Assembly: GCA_964586775.1 (NCBI GenBank)
Contig: CAZPJD010000225.1
Location: 464 to 64,463 of the forward strand
Origin: an uncultured bacterium
Lineage (GTDB): Bacteria > Lernaellota > Lernaellaia > JACKCT01
DNA length: 64,000 bases
Direction: 5' to 3'
The position numbers and the translations under genes were made by a program. A model generated the notes under the pieces. It made no database searches, was not told the origin of the DNA, and saw nothing but the letters and a program-made list of their open reading frames with translations. Positions 9,831-57,610 of this stretch are shown here, piece by piece. The stretch's first letter is position 1; every line of letters begins with the position of its first letter.

Positions 9831-11189
9831 ATGACGACCGAACTGTCGATCGCCCGCGCGCGTGCCCGCGCCATCTGGCTCATCGCGGCGAGCCTCGCGT
9901 TCTTCGCTTGGATCTCGCCCGCGTTCGCGTTGCTGTTCGCCTTTACGACGCTCGTCGATCGCGCCCTCGCCCGCGCCGCCGCGCGCGAACATTCGCGGTG
10001 GATCGCCGCGGGCGCGAGCGCCCTCATGAACCTCGGCGCGATCCTCGCCTTGCACAACCTGCACCGATTCGCCGACGCCCTCGCGGCATGGCCCTCGCTG
10101 ATGGGCTCGGCGCTCAATGAGGGCGGCACCATCGCGGTGCTGCCGATCGGCTGGTCGCTGCTCTTCGCGCAAAACCTCGCCCATGTTCTGGATGTGGCGC
10201 GCGGGCGCGGGCAACCGACCGAGTGCATCCTCGAGCACGCGCTCGCCGCCGTGTTCTTCCCGCGCATGTGGGCGGGGCCGATGGTCGAACCCGTCGCGTT
10301 TGCCGCGCGAATTCGTCGGCCCGAGCGCCTCACCGGCGAACGCCTCGGCCGCGCGATCTGGCACGGCGCGCTGGGCGCGATCAAGATCGTCGCCGTCGCC
10401 GACTACCTCGCGCTCAACATGGTGGACAAGGTCTTCGATCTGCCCACGCTTTTCTCCACAACCGAGGTGGTTTTCGCGCTGGTCGCGAACGCGCTCGTCA
10501 TCGCCGCGATGTGGTCGGGCGCGTGCGACATCGCCGTCGCCGCCGGACTCGTGCTCGGCTTCGACCTGCCGCAAAGTTTCGCGTCGCCCGCCACGGCGAC
10601 GGGTCCGCGCGACCACTGGCGTCGGTTCCTCGCGCCGCTCACGGCCGCGCTTCGCGAGCACGTTTTCCGCCCGCTCGCGGGCGGGCCGAATGCTTCGCGC
10701 CTGCGCCGTGCACTCGCCGCGTTTGCGCCGCCGCTGCTGGTCGGCTGCGTCGTGGGGCCGAGCGAAACCACGCTCGCCTTCGGCGCGTTTGTCGGCGCGA
10801 CGCTGTTCGTCGCGACGCTCTTCGGACGCAAGACCTCGAACGACAAGCCGGGCATCGGCGCGCGCGCGTTCGGATGGGTTCTCACTTTCCTCGCCATGAC
10901 GGTCGCGTGGACGCTCTGGCGTGCGCACGACCTGCAAACCGTTTCCGATCTCGCGTCGATCCTGCCGCTCGGCATCTACGAAACGCCGAACCTGACCGCA
11001 ACCGTGATCGGCGTTTTTTTCGCGTCCCAGGTGGTCGCGTTCGTGCCCGCGCCATGGGTCGCGAAAACCCGCGATGCATTCGCACGTGCGCCCTGGCCCG
11101 TACAGGTCGCGGCGGGGCTCGCGGTGGCGTGGGCGCTTTGGCGCGTGAACGCGGTGTCGGAAGTGCCCTTCGTCTACGAGCGGATGTGA
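9831..11189 (+). CDS. MBOAT-family membrane-bound O-acyltransferase (AlgI/DltB-like)
   Basis: Polytopic. Conserved MBOAT block FFPRMWAGPMVEP (compare FFPQLVAGPIVR in AlgI/DltB) and a downstream invariant His region. Confidence 0.75.
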   Translation: MTTELSIARARARAIWLIAASLAFFAWISPAFALLFAFTTLVDRALARAAAREHSRWIAAGASALMNLGAILALHNLHRFADALAAWPSLMGSALNEGGTIAVLPIGWSLLFAQNLAHVLDVARGRGQPTECILEHALAAVFFPRMWAGPMVEPVAFAARIRRPERLTGERLGRAIWHGALGAIKIVAVADYLALNMVDKVFDLPTLFSTTEVVFALVANALVIAAMWSGACDIAVAAGLVLGFDLPQSFASPATATGPRDHWRRFLAPLTAALREHVFRPLAGGPNASRLRRALAAFAPPLLVGCVVGPSETTLAFGAFVGATLFVATLFGRKTSNDKPGIGARAFGWVLTFLAMTVAWTLWRAHDLQTVSDLASILPLGIYETPNLTATVIGVFFASQVVAFVPAPWVAKTRDAFARAPWPVQVAAGLAVAWALWRVNAVSEVPFVYERM

Positions 11190-20220: not shown

Positions 20221-22560
20221 TCAGATCTCGTACCAGCAGCCGTCGGCGGCGGTCATGAAGGCGTCGTCGTCGCTGTCGAGCTCGCCGGACTGATCGAGGT
20301 CCGCGCCATCGCACCAGCTATTGCCGGCGTCGCACGACGCACCCTCACCGAAGTTCGTCCACGCCGTGTCGAAGTCGGCCTGATCGTCGGCGTCCACATC
20401 GCCGTCGCCGTCGAGGTCGGGCCGCTCGCAACCCAGAACCGCCCACGAGCAGTCGAGCACGGTGGGTTCCATCGCGCAGTTGGGGATCTCGTTCAGATAG
20501 ATCGCCCCGCCGAAGCCCTGGTGCGTGATGTTGGGAATCTCCTCCCAGTCGCCGTCGACGTTGACGACCTCGTAATGATCGCCGTTGCGCTTGATCGGCT
20601 TGTCGGCCTCGGTGGGGAAGCGGTCCCAATAGCGGTCGTAGGTTTCCGGCCGATCGGCGTAGCCGTTCACCTCGGCGAGGATCTGGCTCCACAAATCCGC
20701 GTCGCTCCACAGCGCGCGCGGCGTGCTGTCGCCGCGATTCAGCACGTCCTCGAACACATCCTGATAGCGCTCGGCGCGCACCCAGCCCTGCGGGTCGTAA
20801 TCGGCGTTGCCCACGCCCGCGATGTGCGCGTACTGGGCGACCTTCTGGAGTTCCTCGATCGCCTCGTTCACGTAATTCGATGGCGGCACGGGCTGCGCCT
20901 GCGCCCAGTCGAGCGTGAGCTGCGCGCTGATGCGGTGCAGCTCGGTGATGTGGAAGAGCGCCTCGCGCGCCTCCTGCAGCAGATCGCCCTTGTTGGCGAG
21001 CTGCGCGTAATACACCAGCGCGAAGGCGGCCATCTCGGGCTGGTCGGTCGCGTCGGCGATCTGCATCAGGATGTCGGCCACGCTCGACCCGCCCAGGTTG
21101 ACGGCGATGCGCATGAGGTCTTCGAGCGACTGGCCGAGGATGTTGAGGTTGTAAATGTCGCCCCAGCCGAGGCCGATGTAGGCGTCATCCATGTTTTCGC
21201 AGGTCTTCGTCAGGTTGCCGGGAACCGGGATGCCCAGCGCCTCGAGCAGCATCTTGATCGCGATGATCTCATACGACCCCGGCGTCTCGACGGGCTCCGT
21301 GGGCGAGGTCAGGCCGTCCGCCGACATCGCCTTGGCCATGTACGACATCTGGCAGGAATTCATCGAGCCGAGCCACTCGGGGCCCTCATCCGCGCCGTCG
21401 GGGCGGATTTCGCCGGCGACGATCAGGTGGTCCTCGTCATAGGGCTCGAACTCGCCCACCGTCATCAGGTTGTAGCCCTCGCCGATGGTGCGATCGCCGA
21501 TGCGCTGCCCGGCGGCCCACGCGCGCTCGGCCGAGGCGCGCACGTCGGCGTCGGCGCCGGCGTCGTTCATCGCCTCGAGCGCGGCGAAGTAGCCCACGCC
21601 GAAATCGGGGAAGTTGTCGCGGCTGTTGTGATTGCCCCAGAAGTAGCCCTCGAAGGGCCCGAGCTGGCTGATCATGTACGACGAGCAGCAGTTCGAGATG
21701 CGCAGGTAGTAGGGCATCTCCTCGAAGACGAATGTCACGGCGTAGTCGCCGGGGCGCAGGATCGACTCGATGCGGAAGTAGTGGTCCGTCGGTTCGCCGT
21801 TGATGGCATACACACCATCGGAGAAGAACGCGTTGATGATCTCTTCTTCGAGCGTGGGCGAGTAGTCCTCGGCGGGGTCGATGGGCGCGCCGTCCAGCGT
21901 GCGCGTCACGGTGCCGCCGGGGCCGTCGATGGTGACGGTAAATCCGGTCTGCCACTCGCGGCAGGTGAGACCGTCGATGCCCTGGATTTCCTCGGCGTAG
22001 GCGAGGCCCTCGAACTGGCGGATCGCGGTGAGGGCCAGTTCGCGCGTGCGGAAGATCTTGTAGGCCTGATACGCGTTGAAGGCTGAGAAGCCGATCCAGT
22101 TGTTGTCCACCGGGTGGAGCTGGACTTCGTAGTCGCTGCCGTCCTTGGCGATGTTCGTGTGGCCCAGCGTGTGCGCGGGCACCACGTCGCCGACGAGCAT
22201 GAAGCGGTTGTACGCCTTGAGCGTGCGGCCGATGCGCTCCTTGTAATAGAGCTTGAAGGCGTCGGCCTTCGTGGTCGGATTCACCCACGGATCGAAGGGG
22301 ATGTCGTCGTCGGCGTCGTCGTCCGTCGTATCGTCGTCGGTCGTGTCGTCATCCGAGGTGTCGTCGTCGCCGGTGTCGTCATCCGGCAGCGGGGGGAACG
22401 TGTCGTCGTCGCCCGTGTCGTCGTCCGCGGCGTCGTCATCCGCCGCGTCGTCGTCCGGGGTGATCGTCGTCGGCCCGGAATCGTCGTCGTCATCGCCGCC
22501 GCACCCCGCGACAAACGCCAGAGCCATCACCACCGCCACCGCCCAACCCCACCTGTTCAT
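20221..22560 (-). CDS. Large lipoprotein with poly-Asp N-terminal linker (lipobox VAGCGG then DDDDD...); function unknown
   Basis: Start at MNRWGWAVAVVMALAFVAGC. An acidic tract DDDxxDDD of about 90 aa follows the lipidated Cys. A 650-aa globular domain with no recognised family follows. Confidence 0.6.
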   Translation of the reverse strand: MNRWGWAVAVVMALAFVAGCGGDDDDDSGPTTITPDDDAADDDAADDDTGDDDTFPPLPDDDTGDDDTSDDDTTDDDTTDDDADDDIPFDPWVNPTTKADAFKLYYKERIGRTLKAYNRFMLVGDVVPAHTLGHTNIAKDGSDYEVQLHPVDNNWIGFSAFNAYQAYKIFRTRELALTAIRQFEGLAYAEEIQGIDGLTCREWQTGFTVTIDGPGGTVTRTLDGAPIDPAEDYSPTLEEEIINAFFSDGVYAINGEPTDHYFRIESILRPGDYAVTFVFEEMPYYLRISNCCSSYMISQLGPFEGYFWGNHNSRDNFPDFGVGYFAALEAMNDAGADADVRASAERAWAAGQRIGDRTIGEGYNLMTVGEFEPYDEDHLIVAGEIRPDGADEGPEWLGSMNSCQMSYMAKAMSADGLTSPTEPVETPGSYEIIAIKMLLEALGIPVPGNLTKTCENMDDAYIGLGWGDIYNLNILGQSLEDLMRIAVNLGGSSVADILMQIADATDQPEMAAFALVYYAQLANKGDLLQEAREALFHITELHRISAQLTLDWAQAQPVPPSNYVNEAIEELQKVAQYAHIAGVGNADYDPQGWVRAERYQDVFEDVLNRGDSTPRALWSDADLWSQILAEVNGYADRPETYDRYWDRFPTEADKPIKRNGDHYEVVNVDGDWEEIPNITHQGFGGAIYLNEIPNCAMEPTVLDCSWAVLGCERPDLDGDGDVDADDQADFDTAWTNFGEGASCDAGNSWCDGADLDQSGELDSDDDAFMTAADGCWYEI

Positions 22561-22839: not shown

Positions 22840-23343
22840 ATGACGCAAGGCGCGGGCACGGCGGACTCGGGAACGGCAAGAGCGGGACGGGTCACTCCGC
22901 TGATGATCGCCGCGATCGCCGCGGCGCTGACCGTGGGCATGGCGGCGGGGCTCGGCGCGTACACGTTTGTTTATGCCAAGGGCTATTCTTACATGGGCAA
23001 TGATCCGGCGTCGTGCGTGAACTGCCACATCATGAAAGACCAGTACGAGGCATGGGCGCGCAGCAGCCATCACGCGGTCGCGACCTGCAACGATTGCCAC
23101 GCGCCGCACGACCTCGTCGGCAAGTATCGTGTCAAGGCGACGAACGGCTATCACCACTCGCTCGCGTTCACGACCGGCGAATTCGCCGATCCGATCCACA
23201 TCAAGCCCGGCAACCGCGCCGTCACCGAGGCGCAGTGCCGTCACTGCCACGCCGACATCGTCCACGGCATCGACACCACGCCCGAGCCCGGCGAGGAGAT
23301 GTCGTGCGTGCGGTGCCACGCGTCGGTGGGGCATCTGCATTAG
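22840..23343 (+). CDS. nrfH: Cytochrome c nitrite reductase small subunit NrfH (NapC/NirT tetrahaem family)
   Basis: N-terminal TM helix. Four CxxCH motifs (CVNCH, CNDCH, CRHCH, CVRCH). 167 aa. Directly upstream of nrfA. Confidence 0.85.
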   Translation: MTQGAGTADSGTARAGRVTPLMIAAIAAALTVGMAAGLGAYTFVYAKGYSYMGNDPASCVNCHIMKDQYEAWARSSHHAVATCNDCHAPHDLVGKYRVKATNGYHHSLAFTTGEFADPIHIKPGNRAVTEAQCRHCHADIVHGIDTTPEPGEEMSCVRCHASVGHLH

Positions 23344-23425
23344 GAATTTCGCGCGGCCGTCGTGCGGTCGCGCCGGGTCTTTCGAGATTGGGTCCTGTAC
23401 GGCTAACCGTCCCGGGGAGGTCCTC

Positions 23426-24940
23426 ATGAGTCCGGAAACCACGAAGAGACGCTGGCTCTCGCTGTTCCTGATGTTCGCCGTCGTCGCGGCGGTCGCCGCT
23501 GGCCTGTCGGCTTACGTGCTCACGAGCGTGATGGAGCACAAGCAGGAGGCGAAAAATCCGTTCTTCCGCGTCGTCGAGATCACCGACGACACGGGAGATC
23601 CGGCGATCTGGGGAAAGAACTTCCCGCTGCACTACGATCGCTATCTGCGCACGGCGGACATGGTGCGTACGCGTCGGGGAGGCAGCGAGGCGTTGCCGCA
23701 CACGCCGACCGACGCCGACCCGCGCAGCGTCGTGACGGTGTCGAAGATCGAGGATGACACGCGCCTGAAGCGGATGTGGGCGGGCTACGCGTTTTCCAAG
23801 GACTTTCGCGAAGAGCGCGGCCACGCCTACATGCTCGAAGACCAGATCTACACCGAGCGCCAGAAAGTCGGCCAGCCGGGCACGTGTCTGAACTGCCACG
23901 CGTCGACGTACCTGATCTACAAAGAGCTGGGCAACGGCGACATCATGGCCGGCTTCGACAAGATGAACTCGATGAAATACGACGAGGCCAAGACCTACGC
24001 CAAGCACCCGGTGGCGTGCATCGATTGCCACGACGCGCAGACCATGCAGCTTCGCATCACGCGCCCGGCGTTTATCGAGGGTATCAAGGCGCTCAAGGCG
24101 TCGCAGGGCGTGGCCGACTACGACGTGAACAAGATGGCGACGCGCCAGGAGATGCGGTCGTTCGTGTGCGGCCAGTGCCACGTCGAGTATTACTTCAAGG
24201 GCACCGAGAAGCGCCTGACCTTCCCGTGGCACGAGGGCGTGGGCGGCGAGGACATCCTCGACTACTACAACGAGCAGGGCTTCAAGGACTGGGTGCATGC
24301 CGACACGGGTGCGCCGATGCTCAAGGCGCAGCACCCCGAGTTCGAGATGTGGAACAAGGGCATTCACTCCAAGGCGGGAGTCACGTGCGCCGACTGCCAC
24401 ATGCCCTACATGCGTGAAGGCGCGATGAAGATCAGTGACCACCACGTGCGCAGCCCGCTGCTCAACATCAACAAGTCGTGCGGCACCTGCCACCGCGCCT
24501 CGGAAGAGGAACTCAAGGCGCGCGCCGAGAACATCCAGGAGACATTCTTTGGCCTGCGCAATCAGGCGATGGACGCGCTGATGGATCTGATCGACGACCT
24601 GAAGGCCGCGAAGGACGCGGGGCGGCCCGACGCCGAACTCGCCGCCGCGCGCGAATTGCAGCGCCGCGCGAGCTTCCTGATCGACTTCTGCGAGGCCGAG
24701 AACTCGACGGGCTTCCACGCGCCGCAGGAATCGACGCGCCTGCTCGGCGTGGCGATCAACTACGCCCGCGACGGCCAGCTCTCCGTGCGCGACCCGAATT
24801 ACAAGCCGAAGACCATCGCGGCGCACGAGGCCGCGATGGCGGCGAAGGCCGCGGCGACGCCCGCCGCCGCTCCAGCCGAGAAAAAGGCCGAGGGCCAGAC
24901 GGCCGCCAACGAGAAATCCCCCGGCGCAAGCGCGCTGTAA
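23426..24940 (+). CDS. nrfA: Cytochrome c nitrite reductase pentahaem catalytic subunit NrfA (CxxCH active-site variant)
   Basis: Five CxxCH motifs (CLNCH, CIDCH, CGQCH, CADCH, CGTCH). No CxxCK motif. N-terminal TM/signal. Conserved NrfA blocks YAFSKDF and HVEYYF. RBS ggggagg upstream. Confidence 0.85.
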   Translation: MSPETTKRRWLSLFLMFAVVAAVAAGLSAYVLTSVMEHKQEAKNPFFRVVEITDDTGDPAIWGKNFPLHYDRYLRTADMVRTRRGGSEALPHTPTDADPRSVVTVSKIEDDTRLKRMWAGYAFSKDFREERGHAYMLEDQIYTERQKVGQPGTCLNCHASTYLIYKELGNGDIMAGFDKMNSMKYDEAKTYAKHPVACIDCHDAQTMQLRITRPAFIEGIKALKASQGVADYDVNKMATRQEMRSFVCGQCHVEYYFKGTEKRLTFPWHEGVGGEDILDYYNEQGFKDWVHADTGAPMLKAQHPEFEMWNKGIHSKAGVTCADCHMPYMREGAMKISDHHVRSPLLNINKSCGTCHRASEEELKARAENIQETFFGLRNQAMDALMDLIDDLKAAKDAGRPDAELAAARELQRRASFLIDFCEAENSTGFHAPQESTRLLGVAINYARDGQLSVRDPNYKPKTIAAHEAAMAAKAAATPAAAPAEKKAEGQTAANEKSPGASAL

Positions 24941-24963: not shown

Positions 24964-25000
24964 CGCGGCGATCGGGAACCCGGTCGCCGCGATTTTTTTT
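24964..25000 (+). terminator. Rho-independent terminator after nrfA (also placed at the 3' end of the convergent protease gene)
   Basis: Stem gcggcgatcggg / ccggtcgccgc with a 3-nt loop, followed by T8 (gatttttttt). Confidence 0.6.
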
Positions 25001-25012
25001 ATGGGCGGGGAC

Positions 25013-27874
25013 TCAACAGCCGCAGCCGTCGTCGTCGTCATCGCCGCCGCCGTCCGCCGCCGACGCGTCGTCGTCCGACGTATCGTCGTCCATCGAATCG
25101 TCGTCGGTGATGTCGTCGTCCGCCGTGTCATCGTCGACCGTGTCGTCGTCGTCGGTGTCGTCGTCCAACGTATCGTCATCCGTCGTGTCGTCATCGACGG
25201 TGTCGTCGTCGACGTCGTCATCCGCGTCGTCGTCGGTATCGTCGTCGCCGGGGATCGTGGTCGTCGTGGTCGATGTCGTGGACGTGGTGGTTGCAGTCGT
25301 GGACGTGGTGGTCGTTGTCGGCGTGCCGGTGCTCGGCCATCCCACGACCTCGATGTTGTCGAGGCCCCAGTACTGCGCGTCGAGCCCCGCGTTCTTGTAA
25401 TAGAAACGCACGAAGACCTGCGGATACAGATCGGCTTCGGGCAGGTCGAAGGTCACCGCGCCCTCCTGATCCGCACCCCAGTTCACCAGATTCGTCCACG
25501 TCACCCCGTCGTAGGACCACGCCACCTGCGCGCGGTCGAGCAGGCCGTGCCGATACTCGTGCCGGAAACGCAGTTCGATGCCCTCGTGGTGCGAGCAGTC
25601 GAGCGCGGGCGTGATGAGCTGTTCGTCGAGACGCTGGAACTCGCCCGTCGTCTCCTTATCCGCGGCGACGAAGCGGTCCATCCAATGCGGCGAGCTGCGC
25701 GATCCCGCGTTGTCGCTGTTCCACGTCACGGTGTTCGATCCGCCGTCCACGATCTGCCAGGGACGCGGCTCGAGATCGAAGTTGTCGAAGAAGATGCGGT
25801 CGGGCCCGGTGGGCGACGCGGTCACCTCCACCGTGTTGCCGTCGCAGTTGCCGAAGGGATCGCACGCGCGCACCACGTAGTACCAATCCGCGCCGTTGGG
25901 CGCCCATTGATCGAGCCAGGGCGACTCGGTCGCGGTGTCGATGGGGTCGTCGAAATCCTGAGCCCCGGACGCGTCCGCGCGGTAGATGCTGTAGACCACC
26001 ACGCCCGTGTCGGCCGCGGGATCCCACGTGATCTCGGCCTCGTTGTCGAGGCCCGTCGCGCCGGTCGCGCCCGCGAATGTCGGCGCGGCGCAGTCGGCGC
26101 TTGCGATTTTCGTCTCGACGACGTTGATGCCGCCCTCGCCGTCGTTGGCGTCGGTGTAGGTGACCGTGATCGTGTCGCCGTTCGCGAGTTGCAGCACGCC
26201 GTCGGCCGCGGGCGCGCCGGTCGCGGTGGCGATCTGGCCGCGGAAGAGGCCGTCCACTTCCGCGTCCTCGGTCAGGGCGAGCGTCTCGCCGCCAGGCTCG
26301 GTCGTGCTCTTCACGTTCACGTTCAGCGTGCCCGACAGATCGCCCTCGGTCACGGTGACGCGCACGACGTCGTCGCACGAGTACAGCGCACGGTCGATGG
26401 AGAGCGTCGCGTTCGACGTGACCATCTCGGCGAGCAGCCACCAGTACGCCTCGACCACGTCGATGCGCCCGCGCCCGTAGACGTTGTCCTCGCCGGCCGC
26501 GCCCAGATCGACGGCGGTCTCGTAGAGCGCCATCTTCACCTGCTCCACCGTCGCCTCGGGAAAAGCGCCGCGCAGCAGGATCGCCGCGCCGGTCACCGCG
26601 GGCGTGGCCATCGAGGTGCCGCTCATGGTGCTGTAGTTGTTGCCCGGCACCGACGACATGACGTTGTCGCCGATCGCCGAAACCTCGGGCTTGAGCGTCA
26701 GATTGTCGCAGCGCGACGGCCCGCGCGACGAAAAACTCGTGATCGTCGTGTTGTCCTGCTTGAGCGCGCCCACCGCAAAGGTGTTGAGCGACGTCGTGAT
26801 GCGATTCCCCGGCGAACGCAGCGATTTCGCCGTGGGTCCCTCGTTGCCCGCCGCGAAGAGCACCACCACGCCCGCGGCCTCGGCCGCGTCGATCGCCGCG
26901 TAAAAGTCGTTCGCGCACGACGGATTCGGGATGCCCCACGAGTTGTTCACCGCGTCGGGCACGTCGTCCACCGTGCCGGGGTTGCCGTCGGGATCCGCCA
27001 TCCACTCGAACGCGCCGATCGCGTCGCTGTAGATGTTGCCGCCGGGTACGTCGATCGTCTTCGCGCCGATCCACTTCGCGCCCGGGGCCATGCCGATCTG
27101 GTGCCCCGCGCCGTCGTCGCCCAGGATCGTGCCGAGGGTGTGCGTGCCGTGCGAGCCGGAGTCCGTCGGGAAGGTCTCGCTGCCGACGGGATCGAACCAC
27201 GCGTGCTCGGGCAGCACGCCGCCGTCGAGCCCGCGCCACCGATCGGCGAACGCGGGGTGCGTGGCATCCGCGCCCGTGTCCTGATCGCAGGCCAGCGCGC
27301 CCGTGCCGTCGTAGCCCATCGCCCACAGCTCCGGCGCGCGCGACGCCGTGATGCTGCCCAATATGCCCGTGGCCACGTCATCGGCGGCGATCGCGTCGCC
27401 CACGGCGACCGGTTCGATCAGCTCCAGCGGCGGATCGAGATAGACATTCGCGATGTCGCGCCGCGCGCGCAGCGTTTCGATGTACGCCGCGTCGGCCTCG
27501 ATCGCGACCGCGTTGGCGATCCAGAATGGACGCACCCGGCGCACCGCCGCCCCCGCGCCCGCGAGCGTGCCCAACAGCGCGCCCTGCGTGGACGCGGCCA
27601 TGTCCTGCAATTCCTCGATGACGAGCGCGTGGCGCTGCGCCCGGGTCAGGCGCGCGTCGTCCATGAACGCGGTGAGCGCGGCCAGATCCACCGATTCGGC
27701 CATCGTGAGGTAGATGTTCAGCGTTTCGCCGGGCGCGGCGGCGGCCAGCACGTCCTCGAGCGCGTCGTCGAAACGCGCGGCGTTCGCGACGGAGGGCGAA
27801 ATCGCGAGAAGAATCAGCAGAGCGACAAAGGAAACATGGCGGGAAAAACGCAACGTGGACATGGCAACTCCCAT
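25013..27874 (-). CDS. Secreted subtilisin-like serine protease (peptidase S8) with C-terminal domains, Thr-rich linker, poly-Asp linker and terminal GCGC
   Basis: Signal peptide. S8 catalytic residues in DxG, HGTHT and GTSMATP contexts. The C-terminus reads TTTTTSTTATTTS...DDDTDDDADDD...DGGGDDDDDGCGC-stop. Confidence 0.8.
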   Translation of the reverse strand: MGVAMSTLRFSRHVSFVALLILLAISPSVANAARFDDALEDVLAAAAPGETLNIYLTMAESVDLAALTAFMDDARLTRAQRHALVIEELQDMAASTQGALLGTLAGAGAAVRRVRPFWIANAVAIEADAAYIETLRARRDIANVYLDPPLELIEPVAVGDAIAADDVATGILGSITASRAPELWAMGYDGTGALACDQDTGADATHPAFADRWRGLDGGVLPEHAWFDPVGSETFPTDSGSHGTHTLGTILGDDGAGHQIGMAPGAKWIGAKTIDVPGGNIYSDAIGAFEWMADPDGNPGTVDDVPDAVNNSWGIPNPSCANDFYAAIDAAEAAGVVVLFAAGNEGPTAKSLRSPGNRITTSLNTFAVGALKQDNTTITSFSSRGPSRCDNLTLKPEVSAIGDNVMSSVPGNNYSTMSGTSMATPAVTGAAILLRGAFPEATVEQVKMALYETAVDLGAAGEDNVYGRGRIDVVEAYWWLLAEMVTSNATLSIDRALYSCDDVVRVTVTEGDLSGTLNVNVKSTTEPGGETLALTEDAEVDGLFRGQIATATGAPAADGVLQLANGDTITVTYTDANDGEGGINVVETKIASADCAAPTFAGATGATGLDNEAEITWDPAADTGVVVYSIYRADASGAQDFDDPIDTATESPWLDQWAPNGADWYYVVRACDPFGNCDGNTVEVTASPTGPDRIFFDNFDLEPRPWQIVDGGSNTVTWNSDNAGSRSSPHWMDRFVAADKETTGEFQRLDEQLITPALDCSHHEGIELRFRHEYRHGLLDRAQVAWSYDGVTWTNLVNWGADQEGAVTFDLPEADLYPQVFVRFYYKNAGLDAQYWGLDNIEVVGWPSTGTPTTTTTSTTATTTSTTSTTTTTIPGDDDTDDDADDDVDDDTVDDDTTDDDTLDDDTDDDDTVDDDTADDDITDDDSMDDDTSDDDASAADGGGDDDDDGCGC

Positions 27875-29978: not shown

Positions 29979-31547
29979 CTAGCACCCGCATCCGTCGTCG
30001 TCGTCATCGTCGTCGTCGTCGCCGTACGCGGGGATGTCGGTGGACGTGTCGTCGTCACCGGAATCGTCATCCGCCGTATCGTCATCCGCGGTGTCGTCGT
30101 CGGAATCGTCGTCCGCCGTATCGTCGTCGCTATCGTCGTCGCTGTCGTCATCGGTGTCGTCATCGTCGGGTTCGATCAGATCGTCGTCGCCGAAGGGTCC
30201 GCCGCCGGGCAGGATGCCGTAGTACACGCCCATCCAGTAGCCGACGAGGTAGTCCATACCCGGGCCCACATAGCGCTGGTCCTCGCCGTGGTTGCAGCCC
30301 GTCTCGAAGGGCGTCGACTGCCAATACATGTCGGTCCAGTGCCGGTCGTCCAGCTCGCGCGCCTCGGCGGTGATCGGGTCGATGTTGATGAGATCGTTCA
30401 GCCACGGGTACTGGTTGCCCAGCTCGTCGAGCAGCACCGACAGCGGATCGAGCGGCATGTCCGAGCACGTGCGCGCGCGGCGGTAGCTCGGCGCGTCCCA
30501 ATATCGGCCCAACGTGTTGAAGTGGTCGTCCTCGATCCAGTCGTAATCGTCTTCCACGCAATTGCCGAGACGCAGGCAGCCGGTCACGTGCGTCGAATCG
30601 AACCAGGGGTTGTGCGTTCGTTCCACATAGGGGCGGTTGTAGGTCATCCACAGATCGTAGAGTTCCTCGAGCCGCTCGCGATCCGGCCACAGGCGAAACA
30701 CCGCCTGAAAATCCAAATGACGCAGGTTGTTGCCGTAGTACTCGGTGTACTTGTTGTATCCGGCCCAGATGTCCACCGCGAGCACGGGCCGCCACAGGTT
30801 GTACTGCTGGTCGAGCAGTTCCCAAATCTCGGGTGTGTCGATCACGTACGCGGCCTGCACGAGCCACGCGATGCGCTTCATCGGGCCGATCCACGCCGCG
30901 CCGTTGCCCGTGTATTCGCCGTTCTGGTCGGTGATGTTCCAGTCGTTCGTCGTGAGCATCTCGATCACGTCGATGATGTCGTCGCGGATGCCCGCGCGCA
31001 CGTCCTCGTGCTCGGCGAGTCCTTCGAGCGCCTGATACGAGAGCACCATGCCCCACCACCAGCCGCTGTATTGGTCGCGGCTCGTGTGATCGACCCAGTA
31101 GAGCCCCGCGAACTCGCCCTCGCCGTGATTTTTCCAGTCGTTGTCATCGCCCTGGCCGCAGTTCCACGGGGCGATGTCCTCGCCCGCGAAGCGAGCGATG
31201 TAGCCCAGCGTCTGCGTGATCGCCATGGCGGTGCGCATGTATTCGACCACGCGCAGCACCTCGTCGAGCGCGCCCTCGTCGCCCGTGGCCATGTAGCGCA
31301 GCGCCTCGGCGCCCAGGTACATGCCCGTCCAGATCATGCTGTCGCCCTGATGGTGCAGGCAGCCGATCTCGGTACGCGTCTCGTCGGTGAACTCGACCGC
31401 GCCGGTGAGCGCACCGAGGCTTCCGTTGTGCCAGGTCTCGATCCACTCCTGATACGCCTCGGCTTTGGCGTGCAGATCGGGATCGAAATCGGCCCACGCG
31501 GGGGAAACCGCGAGACAAATCGTCAGAATCAACAGCGCGCGTCGCAT
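29979..31547 (-). CDS. Secreted hypothetical protein (Trp/Tyr-rich globular domain) with C-terminal poly-Asp linker ending DDDDDDDDDGCGC
   Basis: Signal peptide MRRALLILTICLAVSPAWA. A 440-aa domain with no recognised family. The C-terminal 80 aa are almost exclusively Asp/Thr/Ser, then GCGC-stop. Confidence 0.65.
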   Translation of the reverse strand: MRRALLILTICLAVSPAWADFDPDLHAKAEAYQEWIETWHNGSLGALTGAVEFTDETRTEIGCLHHQGDSMIWTGMYLGAEALRYMATGDEGALDEVLRVVEYMRTAMAITQTLGYIARFAGEDIAPWNCGQGDDNDWKNHGEGEFAGLYWVDHTSRDQYSGWWWGMVLSYQALEGLAEHEDVRAGIRDDIIDVIEMLTTNDWNITDQNGEYTGNGAAWIGPMKRIAWLVQAAYVIDTPEIWELLDQQYNLWRPVLAVDIWAGYNKYTEYYGNNLRHLDFQAVFRLWPDRERLEELYDLWMTYNRPYVERTHNPWFDSTHVTGCLRLGNCVEDDYDWIEDDHFNTLGRYWDAPSYRRARTCSDMPLDPLSVLLDELGNQYPWLNDLINIDPITAEARELDDRHWTDMYWQSTPFETGCNHGEDQRYVGPGMDYLVGYWMGVYYGILPGGGPFGDDDLIEPDDDDTDDDSDDDSDDDTADDDSDDDTADDDTADDDSGDDDTSTDIPAYGDDDDDDDDDGCGC

Positions 31548-33471: not shown

Positions 33472-33894
33472 ATGTTCGACGTCGGCGGCTCCGAAATCCT
33501 GCTCATTCTCTTCCTCACGCTGCTCGTGATGGGGCCGAAGAATATCCCCAAGATCGCGCGCACGCTGGGCAAGACCATGCAGCAGGTCCGGCGCATCACC
33601 AACGAATTCAAGCATGCGATGGAAGACGAGATCCGAGTGCTGGAACTCGAGGAACTCAAGACGGAGCGCGCCAAAACTTCGGCAAATCGCCCCGCCGAGC
33701 CCGTCGCCGCGCGGTCGAATTCCGCCGATGCCGAGGGTCCCGCCACACCCGCCACGCCGGCGGGGGAGCCGGTCGTCGAGACCGTCAATCCGGCGGCGGA
33801 GATCCCGGTCGAGCGCGAGCGAACGGGAGCGCATCCCACCACGCCGTCCACCGAGACGGCGGCGCGTGGCGCGAACGACGGGGGCGCGGCGTGA
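33472..33894 (+). CDS. tatA: Twin-arginine translocase TatA/TatB-family protein
   Basis: The N-terminus MFDVGGSEILLILFLTLLVMGPKNIPKIAR is the TatA/B TM-hinge-amphipathic signature. The long acidic/Pro-rich tail suggests TatB-like. Confidence 0.8.
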   Translation: MFDVGGSEILLILFLTLLVMGPKNIPKIARTLGKTMQQVRRITNEFKHAMEDEIRVLELEELKTERAKTSANRPAEPVAARSNSADAEGPATPATPAGEPVVETVNPAAEIPVERERTGAHPTTPSTETAARGANDGGAA

Positions 33895-34673
33895 AGGAGC
33901 GCGACGCCGAGCTCGCCGGCCACATGACGCTGACGGAGCACCTGACCGAGCTGCGCAAGCGGCTGCTGTGGTGCGTGGGCGCGATCGGCGTGTGCTTTTT
34001 CGCCGCGTGGAATTTTGCGCCGCGCATCTTCGCCCTGTTCATGGAGCCGCTCACGCGCGTGCTGGGCGAGGGCCGGCAGGTGGTGTTCACGTCGCCCGCC
34101 GAGGCGTTCATCACCTACATGAAGGTCGCCGTGACGGTGGGCGTATTCGCGTCGGCGCCGGTGATCTTCTGGCAGATTTGGCGCTTCGTCGCGCCGGGGC
34201 TGTACCGCCGCGAGCGCGCGTATTTCGGCGCGGTGGTGATCGTCGGATCGTTCTTCTTCGTGGGCGGCGCGCTCTTCGGCTACTTCAGCGTCTTCCCCAT
34301 CGGATTCGCCTACTTCATCAAGACCTTCGAGACCGAAACCATCCGCGCGATGATCAGCGTGAAAGAATACTGGAGTTTCGCGCTCACGATGCTCGTGTGC
34401 TTCGGCGTCGCGTTCGAGCTTCCCGTCTTCGTGTTCTTTCTCGCGAGGGTCGGTATCGTCACGCCGCAGTGGCTCTGGAAAAACTTCCGCTACGCCGTGC
34501 TCGTCATCTTCATCGCGGCGGCGATCTTTACGCCGCCCGACATCATCTCGCAGATCACCCTCGGCGTGCCGCTCGTCATCCTCTACCTGCTCGCCACCGG
34601 CGCGGCGTATCTGTTCGGCTCGAGAAAAAAGCCGGTCGAATCCGCGGCCGACGCCGCATCCGCCGACGAGTAG
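33891..34673 (+). CDS. tatC: Twin-arginine translocase subunit TatC
   Basis: 260 aa, six TM. Conserved TatC N-terminal motif MTLTEHLTELRKRL. Overlaps the tatA/B stop by 4 nt. Confidence 0.85.
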   Translation: MKERDAELAGHMTLTEHLTELRKRLLWCVGAIGVCFFAAWNFAPRIFALFMEPLTRVLGEGRQVVFTSPAEAFITYMKVAVTVGVFASAPVIFWQIWRFVAPGLYRRERAYFGAVVIVGSFFFVGGALFGYFSVFPIGFAYFIKTFETETIRAMISVKEYWSFALTMLVCFGVAFELPVFVFFLARVGIVTPQWLWKNFRYAVLVIFIAAAIFTPPDIISQITLGVPLVILYLLATGAAYLFGSRKKPVESAADAASADE

Positions 34674-34680
34674 GCCCCCT

Positions 34681-35346
34681 TCACCGCTTTCGCACGCGGC
34701 CCGTGCTCACGGCCCACCAGCCGTAGGCGAATCCGCCGATGTGCGCCCACCACGCCACACCCGGCGCGCCGGGGTCGCTCATGATCGATCCGAGGATTTG
34801 CATGCCGAGCCAAAGACCGATGAAGATGCGCGCACGCCAGATGAAAAAGATCGGGTAGATGACAATGAGAAAAAATCCCTTGATGCGCGCGGCGGGAAAC
34901 AGATGCAGGTATGCGCCCAGCACCGCCGCCACCGCGCCCGACGCCCCGACCATCGGCACGCGCGATCCCCGCTGCACCACCGCGTGCGCGAGGCACGCGA
35001 CCATCGCGGCGACGAGATAGAAACGCACGAACGCGCCGCGCCCCAGCCGGTCCTCGACGTTGTCGCCGAAGACCCACAGGAACAGCATGTTTCCCGCCAG
35101 ATGCGCGATGCCGCCATGCAGGAACGCGCTGGTGATCGCCGTGACCGGTGTGAGGACCGAATCCCATGCCCACGGATGCAGCAGCTGATAGGGCACCGCC
35201 GCGAAACGCAACCCCGCATCCCGCGCGCCGAGCTGCCACACGAATGCGGCGACATTCGCCGCGATGAGCAGCGTCGTCATCACCGGCGCGCGGCGCGTGG
35301 GGTTGAGGTCGCGATAGGGAATCATGCCCGGGCAGGAATAGCACAA
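34681..35346 (-). CDS. Rhomboid-family intramembrane serine protease
   Basis: GASGAVAAVLGAY (GxSG) in TM4 and HIGGFAYG His in TM6. 221 aa. Confidence 0.8.
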   Translation of the reverse strand: MCYSCPGMIPYRDLNPTRRAPVMTTLLIAANVAAFVWQLGARDAGLRFAAVPYQLLHPWAWDSVLTPVTAITSAFLHGGIAHLAGNMLFLWVFGDNVEDRLGRGAFVRFYLVAAMVACLAHAVVQRGSRVPMVGASGAVAAVLGAYLHLFPAARIKGFFLIVIYPIFFIWRARIFIGLWLGMQILGSIMSDPGAPGVAWWAHIGGFAYGWWAVSTGRVRKR

Positions 35347-35432: not shown

Positions 35433-36485
35433 ATGTCCATCGCCGCGACGACCGTGACCGAGATGTACGAACGCATGCGCGAGCGCTTGGCGCGCCTCGT
35501 GCCCGAGGCCGAGCTGCGCCTGAAGGCCGAGATCGCGTTCGAGGTCAATCGCCTCAAGGCCGAGCGCGGCGCGATCGTCCTCGGCCACAACTACATGGAG
35601 CCCGCGCTCTTCCACTCGGTCTGCGACGTGGTGGGCGATTCGCTGGAACTCTCGCGGCGCGCCGCGGCGGCGAGCGCGGACCCGATTGTGTTTTGCGGCG
35701 TGCGTTTCATGGCCGAAACGGCGAAGATCCTGAATCCCGAACGCACCGTTTTGCTGCCCGCGAAAAAAGCGGGGTGTTCGCTCGCCGACGGCATCACCGC
35801 CGAAGACGTGCGCCGACTGCGCGAGGCGTATCCCGGCGTGCCGATCGTCACCTACATCAACACCTACGCCGACGTGAAGGCCGAGGTGGACGTGGTGTGC
35901 ACGTCGGGCAACGCGGTGCGCGTGGTGAGGGCGCTCGATTCCGACCTCGTGATTTTCCTGCCCGACGAATACCTGGCGCGCAACGTCGCCGCCGAGACGG
36001 GCAAGACGATTCTCGTGCCGACGGGCGATCTGGATTCGCTCGGGGACGTGCGCGCGCGCGGCATCGGCATGATCGGCTGGCGCGCCCGCTGCGAGGTCCA
36101 CGAAAAATACACGGTGGACGACATCGCGAATGTGCGGCGGCAGTTCCCCGACGTGTACGTGCTCGCGCATCCCGAGTGCCGCCCCGAGGTCGTCGAGGCC
36201 GCGGACTATTCCGGCAGCACGACGCAGATGGTACACCAGGTGAAACAGCACGACGCGGCGCACTATCTGCTGCTCACCGAATGCAGCATGGGCGACAACA
36301 TCATCGCCGAGAACCCCGAGCGCGACATTTTGCGGATGTGCTCGGTGCGCTGCCCGCACATGAACGAGATCACGCTCGAAAACGTGCTCGATTCGCTGCG
36401 CCACGACGCGGAGACGATCGAGGTCGAGGAATCGGTGCGTGTGCGCGCGCGCAAATCGCTCGACCGGATGCTGGCGATCGGGTGA
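35433..36485 (+). CDS. nadA: Quinolinate synthase
   Basis: Three-fold repeat architecture with conserved Cys (CVRFMAET, CEVHEKY, CSMGD contexts). About 350 aa. Confidence 0.85.
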   Translation: MSIAATTVTEMYERMRERLARLVPEAELRLKAEIAFEVNRLKAERGAIVLGHNYMEPALFHSVCDVVGDSLELSRRAAAASADPIVFCGVRFMAETAKILNPERTVLLPAKKAGCSLADGITAEDVRRLREAYPGVPIVTYINTYADVKAEVDVVCTSGNAVRVVRALDSDLVIFLPDEYLARNVAAETGKTILVPTGDLDSLGDVRARGIGMIGWRARCEVHEKYTVDDIANVRRQFPDVYVLAHPECRPEVVEAADYSGSTTQMVHQVKQHDAAHYLLLTECSMGDNIIAENPERDILRMCSVRCPHMNEITLENVLDSLRHDAETIEVEESVRVRARKSLDRMLAIG

Positions 36486-36507
36486 GGGCCGAAGGAGAAT
36501 CACGAAG

Positions 36508-37902
36508 ATGCGGACCTACTGCCGGAAGGTTTTGTTCCTTCCCCTCTTGGCCGTATTGCTTCTCACCGGCTGCACAGGAGACGACGATTCGCCTTCGTCG
36601 GACTCCGGCGTAACAAGCGATGACGACTCGGCGTCGGACGACGACACGACCGCCGATGACGACGCGGCGGACGACGATCTCGCGGACGATGACGACGACG
36701 GGCCGAGTTATCGCCCGATCCTGTTCGTGCATGGATTCCTCGAAGACGGCGACGCCTTTCACGCGCAGTCGCAGCGCTTCGCCACGAACGACTACGACCT
36801 CGATCGCGTCTTCGCCGTCGATTACAACACGCTCTGGGCGACGCCGGACGCCGTCGATCTGATCGGCGGGGCGATCGACGAGATCCGCGCGCTCACCGGC
36901 GCCGACGACGTCGACCTGATCGGCCACTCGATGGGCGGGTCGATGGGCGCGGATTATCTGCAGGGCGCCCCCGCGCCGAACCACGTCGCCCACTACGCCC
37001 ACGTGGCGTCCTTCGATTTCGAAACGGCGGGCATCGACGCGCCGATCCTCAATCTGTCGTCCGAGGCCGATGCGGTGGTCGGTGCGCGAGAGATCGACGG
37101 CGCGACCAACGTGGTGCTGCCCGGCCTCGACCACCTGCAACTCGCGACGTCGCCCGAGACCTTCGAGCAGCTCTTCACCTTCTTCAACGGCGAGCCGCCC
37201 GCGACGCTCGAGGTCGAGCCCGCCTCGCCCATCACGCTCTCGGGACGCACACTCGTCTTCGGCACGAACGAGCCCGCGCCCGCGCAGATCGTGCGCATCT
37301 TCGCGGTCGATCCCGCGACGGGGGAGCGCGACGCCGCCGAGCCCGACGCGGTTTTCACGTCCGACGCGACCGGCGCGTGGGGCCCATTCGATGCTGAGCC
37401 GGACACGCACTACGAGTTCGAGATCCGCGACGAGGCCGGGCGCTGGCCGGCGGTGCGTTATTACCGCGAGCCGTTTATGCGTTCGAGCCGCCTCGTGCAC
37501 TTTCGCGTGTTGCCCGATTTCGATTCGGCGTTCGCGGTGCCGTTCAAGCTGCTACCGCTGCTGGGTGATCGCGTCGCCTTTGCCTCGCTCAACCTCAACC
37601 GCGCGGCGATCGCCGGGCGCGACACCTTCACCGTGGACGGAATCGACCTGGCGACCGAAGACGTTACGCCCGCCGACCAGAGCGTTCTCGCGGCGGTGTT
37701 CGCCGATCTCAACTTCAACGGCGCCACCGACGGACCGATCCTGCCCGGCATCGTCGGCCTCTTTCCGTTCTTCACGATCTACGATCTTTTCGCCGATCCC
37801 GGCGTCGGCGATCCCATCCCGATCGAATTCAACGGACGCACTCTGACGATCCGAGGGGACGAGGGCCCCGCCGAGTCGCTCTCCATCGCTCAATTCGACT
37901 GA
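36508..37902 (+). CDS. Lipoprotein alpha/beta-hydrolase (lipase/esterase class) with poly-Asp N-terminal linker
   Basis: Lipobox LLTGC, then TGDDDSPSSDSGVTSDDDSASDDDTTADDDAADDDLADDDDDG. Lipase motif GHSMGG and an HG oxyanion region. Confidence 0.7.
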   Translation: MRTYCRKVLFLPLLAVLLLTGCTGDDDSPSSDSGVTSDDDSASDDDTTADDDAADDDLADDDDDGPSYRPILFVHGFLEDGDAFHAQSQRFATNDYDLDRVFAVDYNTLWATPDAVDLIGGAIDEIRALTGADDVDLIGHSMGGSMGADYLQGAPAPNHVAHYAHVASFDFETAGIDAPILNLSSEADAVVGAREIDGATNVVLPGLDHLQLATSPETFEQLFTFFNGEPPATLEVEPASPITLSGRTLVFGTNEPAPAQIVRIFAVDPATGERDAAEPDAVFTSDATGAWGPFDAEPDTHYEFEIRDEAGRWPAVRYYREPFMRSSRLVHFRVLPDFDSAFAVPFKLLPLLGDRVAFASLNLNRAAIAGRDTFTVDGIDLATEDVTPADQSVLAAVFADLNFNGATDGPILPGIVGLFPFFTIYDLFADPGVGDPIPIEFNGRTLTIRGDEGPAESLSIAQFD

Positions 37903-57606: not shown

Positions 57607-57610
57607 GGAT

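Follow-up and report, generated by a model that had tools for sequence, protein, structure and literature searches.

The window, a 64-kb stretch of DNA from an uncultured bacterium of the candidate phylum Lernaellota, contains about 45 genes, three or four of which encode proteins ending in the same kind of tail, a low-complexity linker closed by a terminus rich in Gly and Cys. One of them, at 25013..27874 on the minus strand, is an open reading frame of 953 aa encoding an S8 serine protease (PF00082, E 7.7e-45). As read from the sequence, its first 32 residues (27779..27874) form a Sec signal peptide of the signal peptidase I type, which has no lipobox and ends at an AxA-type site (...SPSVANA/ARFDD, the slash marking the cut). 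A choice-of-anchor J domain (aa 697-843; 25346..25786), which passed the HMM scan with NF038128 only narrowly (30.7 bits against a cutoff of 30), adjoins the linker of the tail on its upstream side. The tail consists of a Thr/Ser-rich linker of 28 aa (25250..25333), an acidic (DDDx)n linker of 73 aa with 63% Asp (25028..25246), whose DNA has an imperfect 15/45-nt periodicity, and a terminal Gly-Cys-Gly-Cys (25016..25027) matching the signature motif of MYXO-CTERM, followed directly by the stop codon TGA (25013..25015); the C-terminus reads ...STGTPTTTTTSTTATTTSTTSTTTTTIPG-(DDDx)n-GGGDDDDD-GCGC-TGA. Both linkers had been recognised in the earlier note, but the lengths given there, about 40 and about 90 aa, are too high, since the whole span 25013..25330 holds only 105 codons and the stop.

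The second tagged gene (29979..31547, minus strand) encodes a protein of 522 aa, here called P522, composed of a signal peptide (31491..31547; ...SPAWA/D, AxA-type, no lipobox), an (alpha/alpha)6-barrel-like domain, an acidic linker (29994..30188) and GCGC (29982..29993) followed by the stop codon TAG; its C-terminus is DDDDDDDDDGCGC-TAG. No Pfam or NCBIfam family was matched by P522 in profile scans, and its AlphaFold model (pLDDT 87.9) gave a weak GH9/GH76/epimerase-like fold match. The claim that unrelated signal-peptide proteins share one C-terminal tag is borne out, both proteins ending in acidic linker, GCGC and stop, and the related termini noticed elsewhere are real in the sequence. 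In the third gene (48789..50033, minus strand), a Kelch beta-propeller with a signal peptide, a Thr-rich linker (48936..49106) and an Asp/Gly-rich linker (48804..48935) lead to the ending ...GGGGCA, with a single Cys at position -2; endings in ...GGCA or ...GGGCA are also found in the loci L018, L039, L017 and L076 of other metagenome-assembled genomes (MAGs). A fourth and looser case on the plus strand (2661..4712) has a signal or anchor N-terminus, Cys-rich repeats, an acidic linker (4560..4670) and GGCCGCG (4671..4691), followed by the six-residue extension DNGTDD, and its ORF, ending at 4712, terminates ...GGCCGCGDNGTDD.

The two GCGC termini of the window are independently encoded. Their codons and stops are GGC TGC GGC TGT TGA in the S8 gene and GGA TGC GGG TGC TAG in the P522 gene, differing in three of four codons and in the stop, and a recent nucleotide duplication, which the earlier note had named as a possible refutation, was thus rejected. 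Across 67 terminal cases, 30 different codon quartets spell GCGC and all three stops (TGA, TAA and TAG) are used; because codon spellings and stops differ, the tail is neither a chance feature nor a recent duplication, and these data support the view that selection on it acts at the protein level. The tail persists between genera whose proteins are 50-60% identical, with synonymous variation, and its geometry is constrained: the first Cys lies at -3 in 41 of 46 unbiased members of the P522 family, Gly precedes it in 125 of 154 tails, and just two small residues follow it in 127 of the 154, most of which have Cys as the last residue, with single-Cys endings (GGCA, GGCS) tolerated. A C-terminal acidic linker lacking the terminal Cys is nearly absent, the two exceptions being a 'partial' record and a fragment, and the spacer, too, is missing from homologs that lack the Cys motif. 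The expected association with signal peptides was confirmed, a signal-like N-terminus being found by a heuristic in 49 of the 50 tail proteins whose N-terminus is intact. Likewise, as had been noted for the S8 protease, no hydrophobic segment is encoded in any frame downstream of GCGC in the tails of the window.

The tag had been taken as unrelated to known signals, and this view could not be maintained, since the published signature of MYXO-CTERM is just this GCGC behind an acidic or low-complexity linker (Haft preprint 10.1101/2023.06.07.544157; PMC11980579) and full-length forms turn up both in these MAGs and within the same orthologous families. Standard MYXO-CTERM signals comprise a flexible linker, a signature near the C-terminus that has an invariant Cys and often reads G-C-G-C, a transmembrane (TM) helix and an Arg cluster; they have been published from Myxococcota and Bradymonadales. 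The helix is thought to keep the substrate at the inner membrane for modification, and the signal is cut by an enzyme homologous to the CAAX protease Rce1 (PMC11980579), whereas lipidation of the Cys is a working model without experimental demonstration (PMC11980579). In the MAGs of Myxococcota, DDDD-GCGC runs on as [R/S/T]xxG...hydrophobic...RRRR-stop, and these long forms match TIGR03901.2 with 22.9-38.4 bits (cutoff 20), the alignment starting at D-G-C-G-C; for long forms overall, the range is 20.7 to 38.4 bits. The tails studied here share with MYXO-CTERM (TIGR03901; myxosortases MrtX/MrtC/MrtP of the CPBP/Rce1 family) the Sec signal peptide, the disordered or acidic linker and G-C-G-C, as well as dozens of substrates per genome with hydrolase and adhesin cargo, and they end at the predicted cleavage site. 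Unlike it, they have a stop codon after the second Cys and no Arg cluster, leaving nothing for an intramembrane protease to remove, and they are found in Lernaellota-like MAGs. Because TM helix and Arg cluster are missing, TIGR03901.2 matched neither the full proteins (E <= 0.1) nor the isolated tails (E <= 10) nor a truncated matrixin tail, and the earlier note was right that this is not the MYXO-CTERM domain as defined, its TM segment being absent. Homology of the tail to MYXO-CTERM is well supported by these sequence comparisons.

A scan for DDDDGCGC was run over 185,579 species genomes. Among the matches listed, 65 of the 67 from six Lernaellota-like MAGs, four of them classified as 'bacterium' only, have a stop directly behind the motif, against 0 of 54 elsewhere; among these matches, the GCGC-stop tag is lineage-wide and restricted to Lernaellota-like MAGs. 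Where homologs are named, they belong to Ca. Lernaella and Ca. Alcyoniella, two members of Ca. Lernaellota, or to a MAG labelled FR-FEN-1099-1. Absence of the motif from other secreted proteins would have spoken against a sorting tag; in fact, dozens more carry it in the sampled loci. Hydrolases and adhesins of 37 Pfam families make up the cargo, with degradative enzymes prevailing. Full and truncated forms occur side by side: the MAG DAIMDW has at least 20 stop-terminated forms and one full form (L047; TIGR03901.2, 30.1 bits), and the MAG DAINPV encodes at L090:753-1922 a Cys+TM+RRKK tail, recognised by sequence and matched by no NCBIfam model. Orthologs of these two full-length forms were absent from the sampled MAG loci, and the question was settled by a database search instead; an exact-sequence look-up of the window protein in public assemblies returned no record.

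Within orthologous families the tail alternates with other ways of ending the protein. Among matrixin homologs, 16 have a Cys+TM+basic tail by sequence; four of these were scanned against TIGR03901.2, and three reached the cutoff (25.3, 23.2 and 20.7 bits) while one fell below it (17.2 bits). In the homologs P0220 and P0223, within the same operon, a stop (TAG and TGA, respectively) directly follows GGCGC, and full and truncated forms hence interconvert within one orthologous, syntenic family. S8 proteases of the same architecture end in poly-Asp and terminal Cys (40 members), in Cys+TM+Arg (5), in a T9SS domain or in nothing, the orthologs P0111, P0113, P0114 and P0121 being tailless and ending right after the choice-of-anchor J domain. 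The closest homolog of the S8 protease of the window, P0097, is 92% identical and ends ...NNDGGCGC; others end in CSFI, CSFL, CGSF, CSCF, GCGCWF or GCGCGF.

In the P522 family, the tail is present on 45-46 of 90 homologs and takes turns with an N-terminal lipoprotein anchor, identified by a lipobox ([LVI][ASTVI][GAS]-C) ending the signal peptide, which neither the S8 protease nor P522 has. All 46 tails belong to members with ordinary signal peptides, with none in the 26 members having a lipobox and a poly-Asp linker and none in the five with a lipobox alone; tail and lipoprotein anchor are mutually exclusive (Fisher p = 3.5e-11, ignoring kinship and resting on few paralogous clades rather than many independent events). 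Apparently 'double-anchored' members, with lipobox and tail, were dismissed as false positives because the Cys sits within the hydrophobic core of the signal peptide. The mirror-image architecture is also present in the window: a tailless gene at 20221..22560 (minus strand) has a lipoprotein signal ...AFVAG-C (22501..22560) followed by a GG-DDDDD/(DDDx)n linker (22303..22500), and lipobox and poly-Asp occur together in the genes at 36439..37902 (plus strand; LLLTGC-TGDDD) and 55384..57687 (minus strand; ALIASAC-SGGDDDDDDDD).

The search for curated models and for a dedicated enzyme gave mainly negative results. Neither NCBIfam (E <= 10) nor Pfam has a curated model for the tail, and the PEP-CTERM, GlyGly-CTERM, LPXTG and T9SS CTD models had no match on the tails at E <= 10. 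NF058595 ('lipo-invert') was set aside, as it touches just the N-terminal lipoprotein signal of the 20221..22560 protein with 13.8-15.3 bits against a cutoff of 37; the term is absent from the searchable literature. The searchable literature on Lernaellota, FEN-1099, choice-of-anchor domains and MYXO-CTERM, including the text of the Haft preprint, yielded no account of TM-less forms. Neither the 64-kb window nor the sampled MAG loci, about 0.5 Mb in all, yielded a CPBP/myxosortase (NF040914-type), an additional Lgt or any other enzyme candidate, a CPBP motif screen of 326 genes yielded no true candidate, and the conserved matrixin operon contains no CPBP gene. Near the tagged genes no sorting or modifying enzyme was found: the window has just a generic rhomboid at 34681..35346 and, at 9831..11189, a membrane protein with a weak likeness to DltB/MBOAT.

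We propose that the tail is a naturally truncated, TM-less and cleavage-independent variant of the Cys-type tripartite C-terminal sorting signal represented by MYXO-CTERM, a reading to which we give even chances. Carrying the signature yet stopping at the predicted myxosortase cut, the tagged enzymes seem 'pre-cut', and their anchoring may do without the usual sorting protease. A tagged protein would be exported by Sec and would lose its N-terminal signal peptide; the globular enzyme would be followed by a long disordered Thr/Asp spacer, and a covalent modification, most likely the lipidation proposed for MYXO-CTERM, would be placed on Cys in the free C-terminal [G]-C-x-C-COOH. The C-terminus would thereby tether the enzyme at the membrane surface without an intramembrane sorting protease being required, and the tail would act as a functional mirror of the N-terminal lipoprotein Cys and poly-Asp linker in paralogs of the same genomes. 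Against anchoring, a highly acidic soluble tail without TM helix has no obvious route to a membrane-embedded transferase. The more specific idea, a sortase-independent C-terminal anchoring pathway of Lernaellota in which a periplasm-facing enzyme would recognise free ...G-C-x-C-COOH on Sec-exported proteins and add a lipid or envelope moiety, is tentative, and we consider it possible though on balance doubtful.

The main rival is that truncation frees surface proteins and that the terminal Cys-x-Cys serves outside the cell in some other way, for instance for intermolecular disulfides to a partner, for oligomerisation or for matrix attachment. A CXC dithiol may be redox-active. The tails have no TM helix for membrane retention, the cargo consists mainly of degradative enzymes able to act at a distance, and TraA of M. 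xanthus without its whole MYXO-CTERM is released into the medium via the T2SS (PMC11980579). On a free enzyme, however, one would hardly expect a spacer of 50-100 residues that always ends in a Cys motif of constrained position, particularly as spacer and motif are missing together in homologs and the tail alternates with a lipoprotein anchor bearing the same spacer; release further requires a hypothetical partner, and we regard it as unlikely. A further proposal, which takes up the metal anchoring suggested in the earlier note, is that poly-Asp binds Ca2+, Fe or mineral surfaces while the dithiol chelates a soft metal, fixing the enzyme to particles or to a cation-bridged envelope. The 63% Asp and the two terminal thiols are what such a tail would offer, but the linker behind the lipidated Cys of N-terminal lipoproteins is the same and a mere spacer there, GCGC is a processing signature in MYXO-CTERM, and the tolerated single-Cys endings weaken a dithiol chelate; we regard metal binding as highly improbable.

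It is also conceivable, though improbable, that the tail is still processed by a resident machinery of the myxosortase type, free C-x-C-COOH or a short extension being a CAAX-like substrate of a CPBP/Rce1-family enzyme; the tail would in that case be a substrate with a short signal rather than one independent of a protease. This would accommodate the extensions GCGC-WF, C-SFL and GGCCGCG-DNGTDD and the S8 endings listed above, the presence of tripartite full-length forms in these MAGs implies such machinery, and members of the CPBP superfamily handle long signals as well as short CAAX signals (Haft). In most tails, however, the two small residues past the first Cys leave little to cleave, and the sampled DNA showed no CPBP gene. 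As for an artefact or a neutral remnant, that is, a mis-called stop, a frameshift or recoding event hiding the TM helix, or a decaying former MYXO-CTERM, GC-rich low-complexity DNA is indeed prone to assembly and frame errors; yet the 67 terminal cases use all three stops and have no TM and basic segment downstream in any frame, so that readthrough or frameshifting was rejected, the stops of the tagged genes in the window are directly followed by a convergent or the next gene, and the motif is conserved across genera. This explanation is effectively refuted and hardly credible.

The proposed truncated signal can be set beside several known systems. In bacterial lipoproteins (Lgt/LspA), a lipidated N-terminal Cys followed by G/GG and poly-Asp mirrors the poly-Asp-G-C-G-C C-terminus, and the two architectures replace each other in paralogs; the tail Cys, however, is C-terminal, with no adjoining hydrophobic signal or lipobox, and the tagged proteins have signal peptidase I-type signals. 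The comparison with Rab CXC and CAAX motifs made in the earlier note is a fitting one, since MYXO-CTERM is cut by a homolog of Rce1, the CAAX protease (PMC11980579): a long form cleaved by Rce1 stands beside an uncleaved short form on Cys-x-Cys, with Cys at a fixed distance from the C-terminus. The terminal C-G-C pattern makes this an analogy only, in that prenylation is cytosolic whereas the tagged proteins are Sec-exported; no prenyltransferase is implied, and eukaryote-style prenylation of such proteins is implausible. JDVT-CTERM, Synerg-CTERM, CGP-CTERM, GlyGly-CTERM/rhombosortase, PEP-CTERM/exosortase, LPXTG/sortase and the T9SS CTD are likewise C-terminal surface-anchoring tags, interchangeable on homologous cargo, but they have a hydrophobic segment and a basic cluster, or a folded domain, and no model of theirs hit the tails, even at E <= 10.

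By definition, prokaryotic C-terminal sorting signals are tripartite, and a membrane protease of its own is believed to be required for each; in the lineage described here, dozens of unrelated secreted hydrolases bear just the motif of such a signal, ending at the would-be cut. If the tails are anchored, helix and myxosortase would be dispensable for the modification step, and the tails would be a minimal, cleavage-free substrate for studying the Cys-modifying enzyme of MYXO-CTERM, an open question in PMC11980579; if they are not, a single stop codon turns anchored proteins into released ones. The finding extends MYXO-CTERM-type signals to a candidate phylum outside Myxococcota and offers a rule by which much of the Lernaellota secretome can be annotated, namely an acidic linker with G-C-x-C at the C-terminus. 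Should the sortase-independent pathway prove true, it would be a prokaryotic counterpart of the uncleaved Rab CXC as against the Rce1-cleaved CAAX, would mean that canonical MYXO-CTERM proteins, once mature, have the last Cys as their C-terminus, and would have perhaps hundreds of client proteins per genome.

The S8 protease gene (25013..27874, -) encodes a protein of 953 aa that begins with a signal peptide of the Sec type. Its Peptidase_S8 domain was recognised in the Pfam scan (PF00082, E 7.7e-45), and aa 697-843 form a choice-of-anchor J domain, which at 30.7 bits narrowly passes the NF038128 cutoff of 30. Directly C-terminal of the latter lies a Thr/Ser-rich stretch of 28 aa (25250..25333, -), followed by an acidic (DDDx)n linker of 73 aa, 63% Asp (25028..25246, -), and a final Gly-Cys-Gly-Cys (25016..25027, -) before the TGA stop, 3' of which no hydrophobic segment occurs in any frame. 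The earlier note had described the tail in these terms, correctly except for the lengths, given as ~40 and ~90 aa and thus too high. Converging on the S8 gene are two genes for multi-haem c-type cytochromes (22840..23343, +, and ~23420..24940, +), which contain several CxxCH motifs and by sequence resemble a putative NrfH/NrfA nitrite-reductase pair; the nearer finishes ~70 nt from its end, with a GC-rich hairpin and a T-run in between (~24975..25000).

The further Gly/Cys termini named in the same note (at 29979, 48789 and 4712) are real when read from the sequence. The 522-aa protein P522 (29979..31547, -) ends DDDDDDDDDGCGC-TAG, a Kelch propeller (48789..50033, -) ends in GGGGCA preceded by Thr-rich and then Asp/Gly-rich linkers, and a fourth tagged ORF (2661..4712, +) ends in GGCCGCG plus six residues, so that such tails occur on 3-4 of the ~45 genes of the 64-kb window, a sample unbiased by pattern. 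A recent duplication had been named as what would refute the motif; the codons of the two GCGC ends differ (GGC TGC GGC TGT TGA and GGA TGC GGG TGC TAG), and the ends are therefore independently encoded. In the product of the fourth ORF, the acidic linker is preceded by a series of repeats of ~30 aa that are rich in Cys (C..DDG.FCNG.E.C...), and many S8 homologs carry similar repeats (PF11617 in precomputed Pfam lists) just N-terminal of their tails.

P522 belongs to no Pfam family; its predicted structure is an (alpha/alpha)6-barrel-like domain (pLDDT 87.9, the tail being of low confidence), distantly like GH9, GH76 and epimerase barrels (Foldseek E ~4e-4, TM ~0.4). More generally, 46 full-length tail proteins represent 37 Pfam families, including S8, C25, M14 and M28 peptidases, purple acid phosphatases, GH43, BNR, Kelch and PKD, and a signal-like N-terminus was called heuristically on 49 of 50 with an intact N-terminus. 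This diversity, the near-universal signal peptides and the P522 fold indicate a tag common to unrelated secreted cargo. The uncharacterised P522 family (P0001-P0090) has neither a Pfam nor an NCBIfam model and several paralogs per genome. It appears confined to Lernaellota-like lineages, its homologs occurring in Candidatus Lernaella and Candidatus Alcyoniella, both in Candidatus Lernaellota (earlier FEN-1099), and in unclassified 'Deltaproteobacteria bacterium' or 'bacterium' MAGs.

A scan with back-translated DDDDGCGC, a pattern holding no stop codon, covered one genome per species in 185,579 species and yielded at least 121 matches at at least 116 loci. Among the matches listed, a stop follows immediately in 65 of 67 from six MAGs (DAIMDW, DAIPLW, DAINPV, JAOSJX 'FR-FEN-1099-1', CAYSHR and CAXXWT) and in 0 of 54 elsewhere. 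The 67 terminal cases, the window's two included, use TGA 43, TAA 15 and TAG 9 times and spell GCGC by 30 different codon quartets, and no TM-plus-basic segment lies 3' of them in any frame. The flanks of the scan loci, not selected by pattern, hold more tails, ending GGCA, GGGCA, NACGC, GGCS, GGCGA and GCGGC.

MYXO-CTERM comprises an invariant-Cys signature ('generic GCGC motif'), a transmembrane helix and an Arg cluster; in the proposed pathway an unidentified enzyme lipidates the Cys, the myxosortase MrtX, a CPBP/Rce1-family intramembrane protease, cleaves, and the T2SS delivers the protein to the surface (PMC11980579). The scan matches from MAGs of the Myxococcota, among them Polyangiaceae, Kofleriaceae and Nannocystaceae, are not terminal but run on as DDDD-GCGC-[R/S/T]xxG...hydrophobic...RRRR-stop, and they score 22.9-38.4 bits with TIGR03901.2 against a cutoff of 20, the alignment starting at D-G-C-G-C. 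The tails have no helix, no Arg cluster and no HMM match, and their host phylum differs, but they share with MYXO-CTERM the signature motif, signal peptide, cargo type and demonstrable homology. The tail is very probably a truncated homolog of MYXO-CTERM; the window tails stop exactly at the predicted myxosortase cleavage point, as the signature minus the removed part. Purely by analogy, the window proteins being exported, tail and MYXO-CTERM may be likened to Rab CXC and CAAX. No description of transmembrane-less forms was found in the searchable literature, part of the relevant papers being outside reach.

Full and truncated forms coexist. MAG DAIMDW carries a full tripartite form (L047, 30.1 bits) alongside truncated tails, and DAINPV a Cys+TM+RRKK tail recognised from its sequence (L090:753-1922; no NCBIfam model matched). 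When the L047 matrixin without its tail was used as query, 16 homologs were judged from sequence to have a Cys+TM+basic tail; of four scanned with TIGR03901.2, three gave 25.3, 23.2 and 20.7 bits, at or above cutoff, and one 17.2, below it. The orthologs P0220 and P0223 end directly after ...GGCGC, at confirmed real TAG and TGA stops. Both lie in the same arrangement of genes, namely two unknowns, the matrixin and carbamate kinase, and 50-90 nt separate the stop from the gene that follows. The family mostly keeps the full MYXO-CTERM-type transmembrane signal; in the matrixin block (L117:8122-12138, L119, L120, L122, L123) the first unknown has 416-452 aa and a weak ZigA/HypB-like GTPase match, and the second, secreted, 186-192 aa.

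With the window S8 protease minus linker and tail as query, 40 homologs of the same architecture have poly-Asp and a terminal Cys motif, the nearest (92% identity) ending ...GGCGC. Five have a Cys+TM+Arg signal, four of which, scanned, gave 10.7-19.8 bits, under the MYXO-CTERM cutoff; the remainder have a T9SS domain or nothing beyond choice-of-anchor J. Odd intermediate endings also occur (L052:3583-5025, -, in JAOSJX, FEN-1099; the L060 match; P0131): one acidic linker ends ...DDDASGRRR, an Arg cluster without Cys or helix, and two endings add 5-12 non-hydrophobic residues to GCGC (GCGC-GSVNL; GGCG-RNRDSYSN). Such endings may be what deletions have left of tripartite signals.

The linker and the Cys are closely coupled. 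A C-terminal acidic linker practically never lacks a terminal Cys, the two exceptions being a 'partial' record and a fragment, and homologs without the Cys motif lack the linker too. In 41 of the 46 family members free of pattern bias, the first Cys occupies position -3; of 154 distinct tails, a partly pattern-biased set, 125 have a Gly just before this Cys and 127 exactly two small residues after it. In the P522 family the tail occurs in 46 members whose signal peptide is of the ordinary kind, in none of 26 with a lipobox Cys, G/GG and poly-Asp linker and in none of five that have just the lipobox (Fisher p = 3.5e-11, uncorrected for phylogeny, the types being paralogous clades of the same genomes). 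In three window lipoproteins (20221..22560, -; 36439..37902, +; 55384..57687, -) the lipobox Cys leads through G/GG into a (DDDx)n linker of some length. Their N-terminal ...[AG]-C-G-(G)-DDDD mirrors the C-terminal DDDD-G-C-G-C, the tail perhaps working as a mirror image of the lipoprotein anchor, and poly-Asp appears to be a general spacer adjoining the anchor Cys in this lineage. The signal of 20221..22560 gives a weak match, of 13.8-15.3 bits where the cutoff is 37, to NF058595 'lipo-invert putative C-terminal anchoring domain', a model with no description in the searchable literature.

A spacer always capped by Cys, constrained in position and swappable with a lipoprotein anchor or full signals is best explained as an attached tether. 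The protein would be exported by Sec and cleaved by signal peptidase I, its Thr/Asp spacer would be disordered, and the free C-terminal C-x-C would be covalently modified, most likely lipidated, tethering it by the C-terminus with no intramembrane protease needed. We hold anchoring by Cys modification to be an even proposition, lipidation being only proposed even for MYXO-CTERM. Against it, loss of the helix takes away what presumably brings the Cys to a membrane enzyme, and TraA without its tag is released (PMC11980579). Release of the tagged enzymes, their thiols forming disulfides or matrix links, is possible though doubtful, and binding of metal or mineral by the tail is quite improbable.

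It is also improbable that the tails are short CAAX-like substrates still processed by a CPBP enzyme, a reading hinted at by S8-homolog endings such as CSFL, CSFI and GCGCWF; no CPBP gene adjoining tail substrates was found at the loci examined. CAAX-looking or short aromatic ends (also CGSF, CSCF, GCGCGF and CSGCGF), in place of a final Cys, occur on acidic tails of the S8 homologs P0133, P0135, P0125, P0122, P0142, P0150, P0162 and P0177, and these tails could be short substrates of a CPBP/Rce1-type protease. An artefact or neutral remnant is extremely improbable, being contradicted by the window frames without a TM segment, the 67 terminal cases and the confirmed P0220 and P0223 stops.

The window offers no candidate for the modifying or sorting enzyme, just a generic rhomboid protease (34681..35346, -; PF01694, E 3e-31), adjoined by a putative TatC-like gene (33891..34673, +), and, at 9831..11189 (+), a multi-pass membrane protein whose DltB/MBOAT-like match is weak (28.5 bits, the cutoff being 375); these are envelope-processing genes in the neighbourhood, and no evidence ties any of them to the tail. 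The tails are of interest to the protein-sorting field as a variant of the MYXO-CTERM-type signal, with the anchoring chemistry as a proposal.
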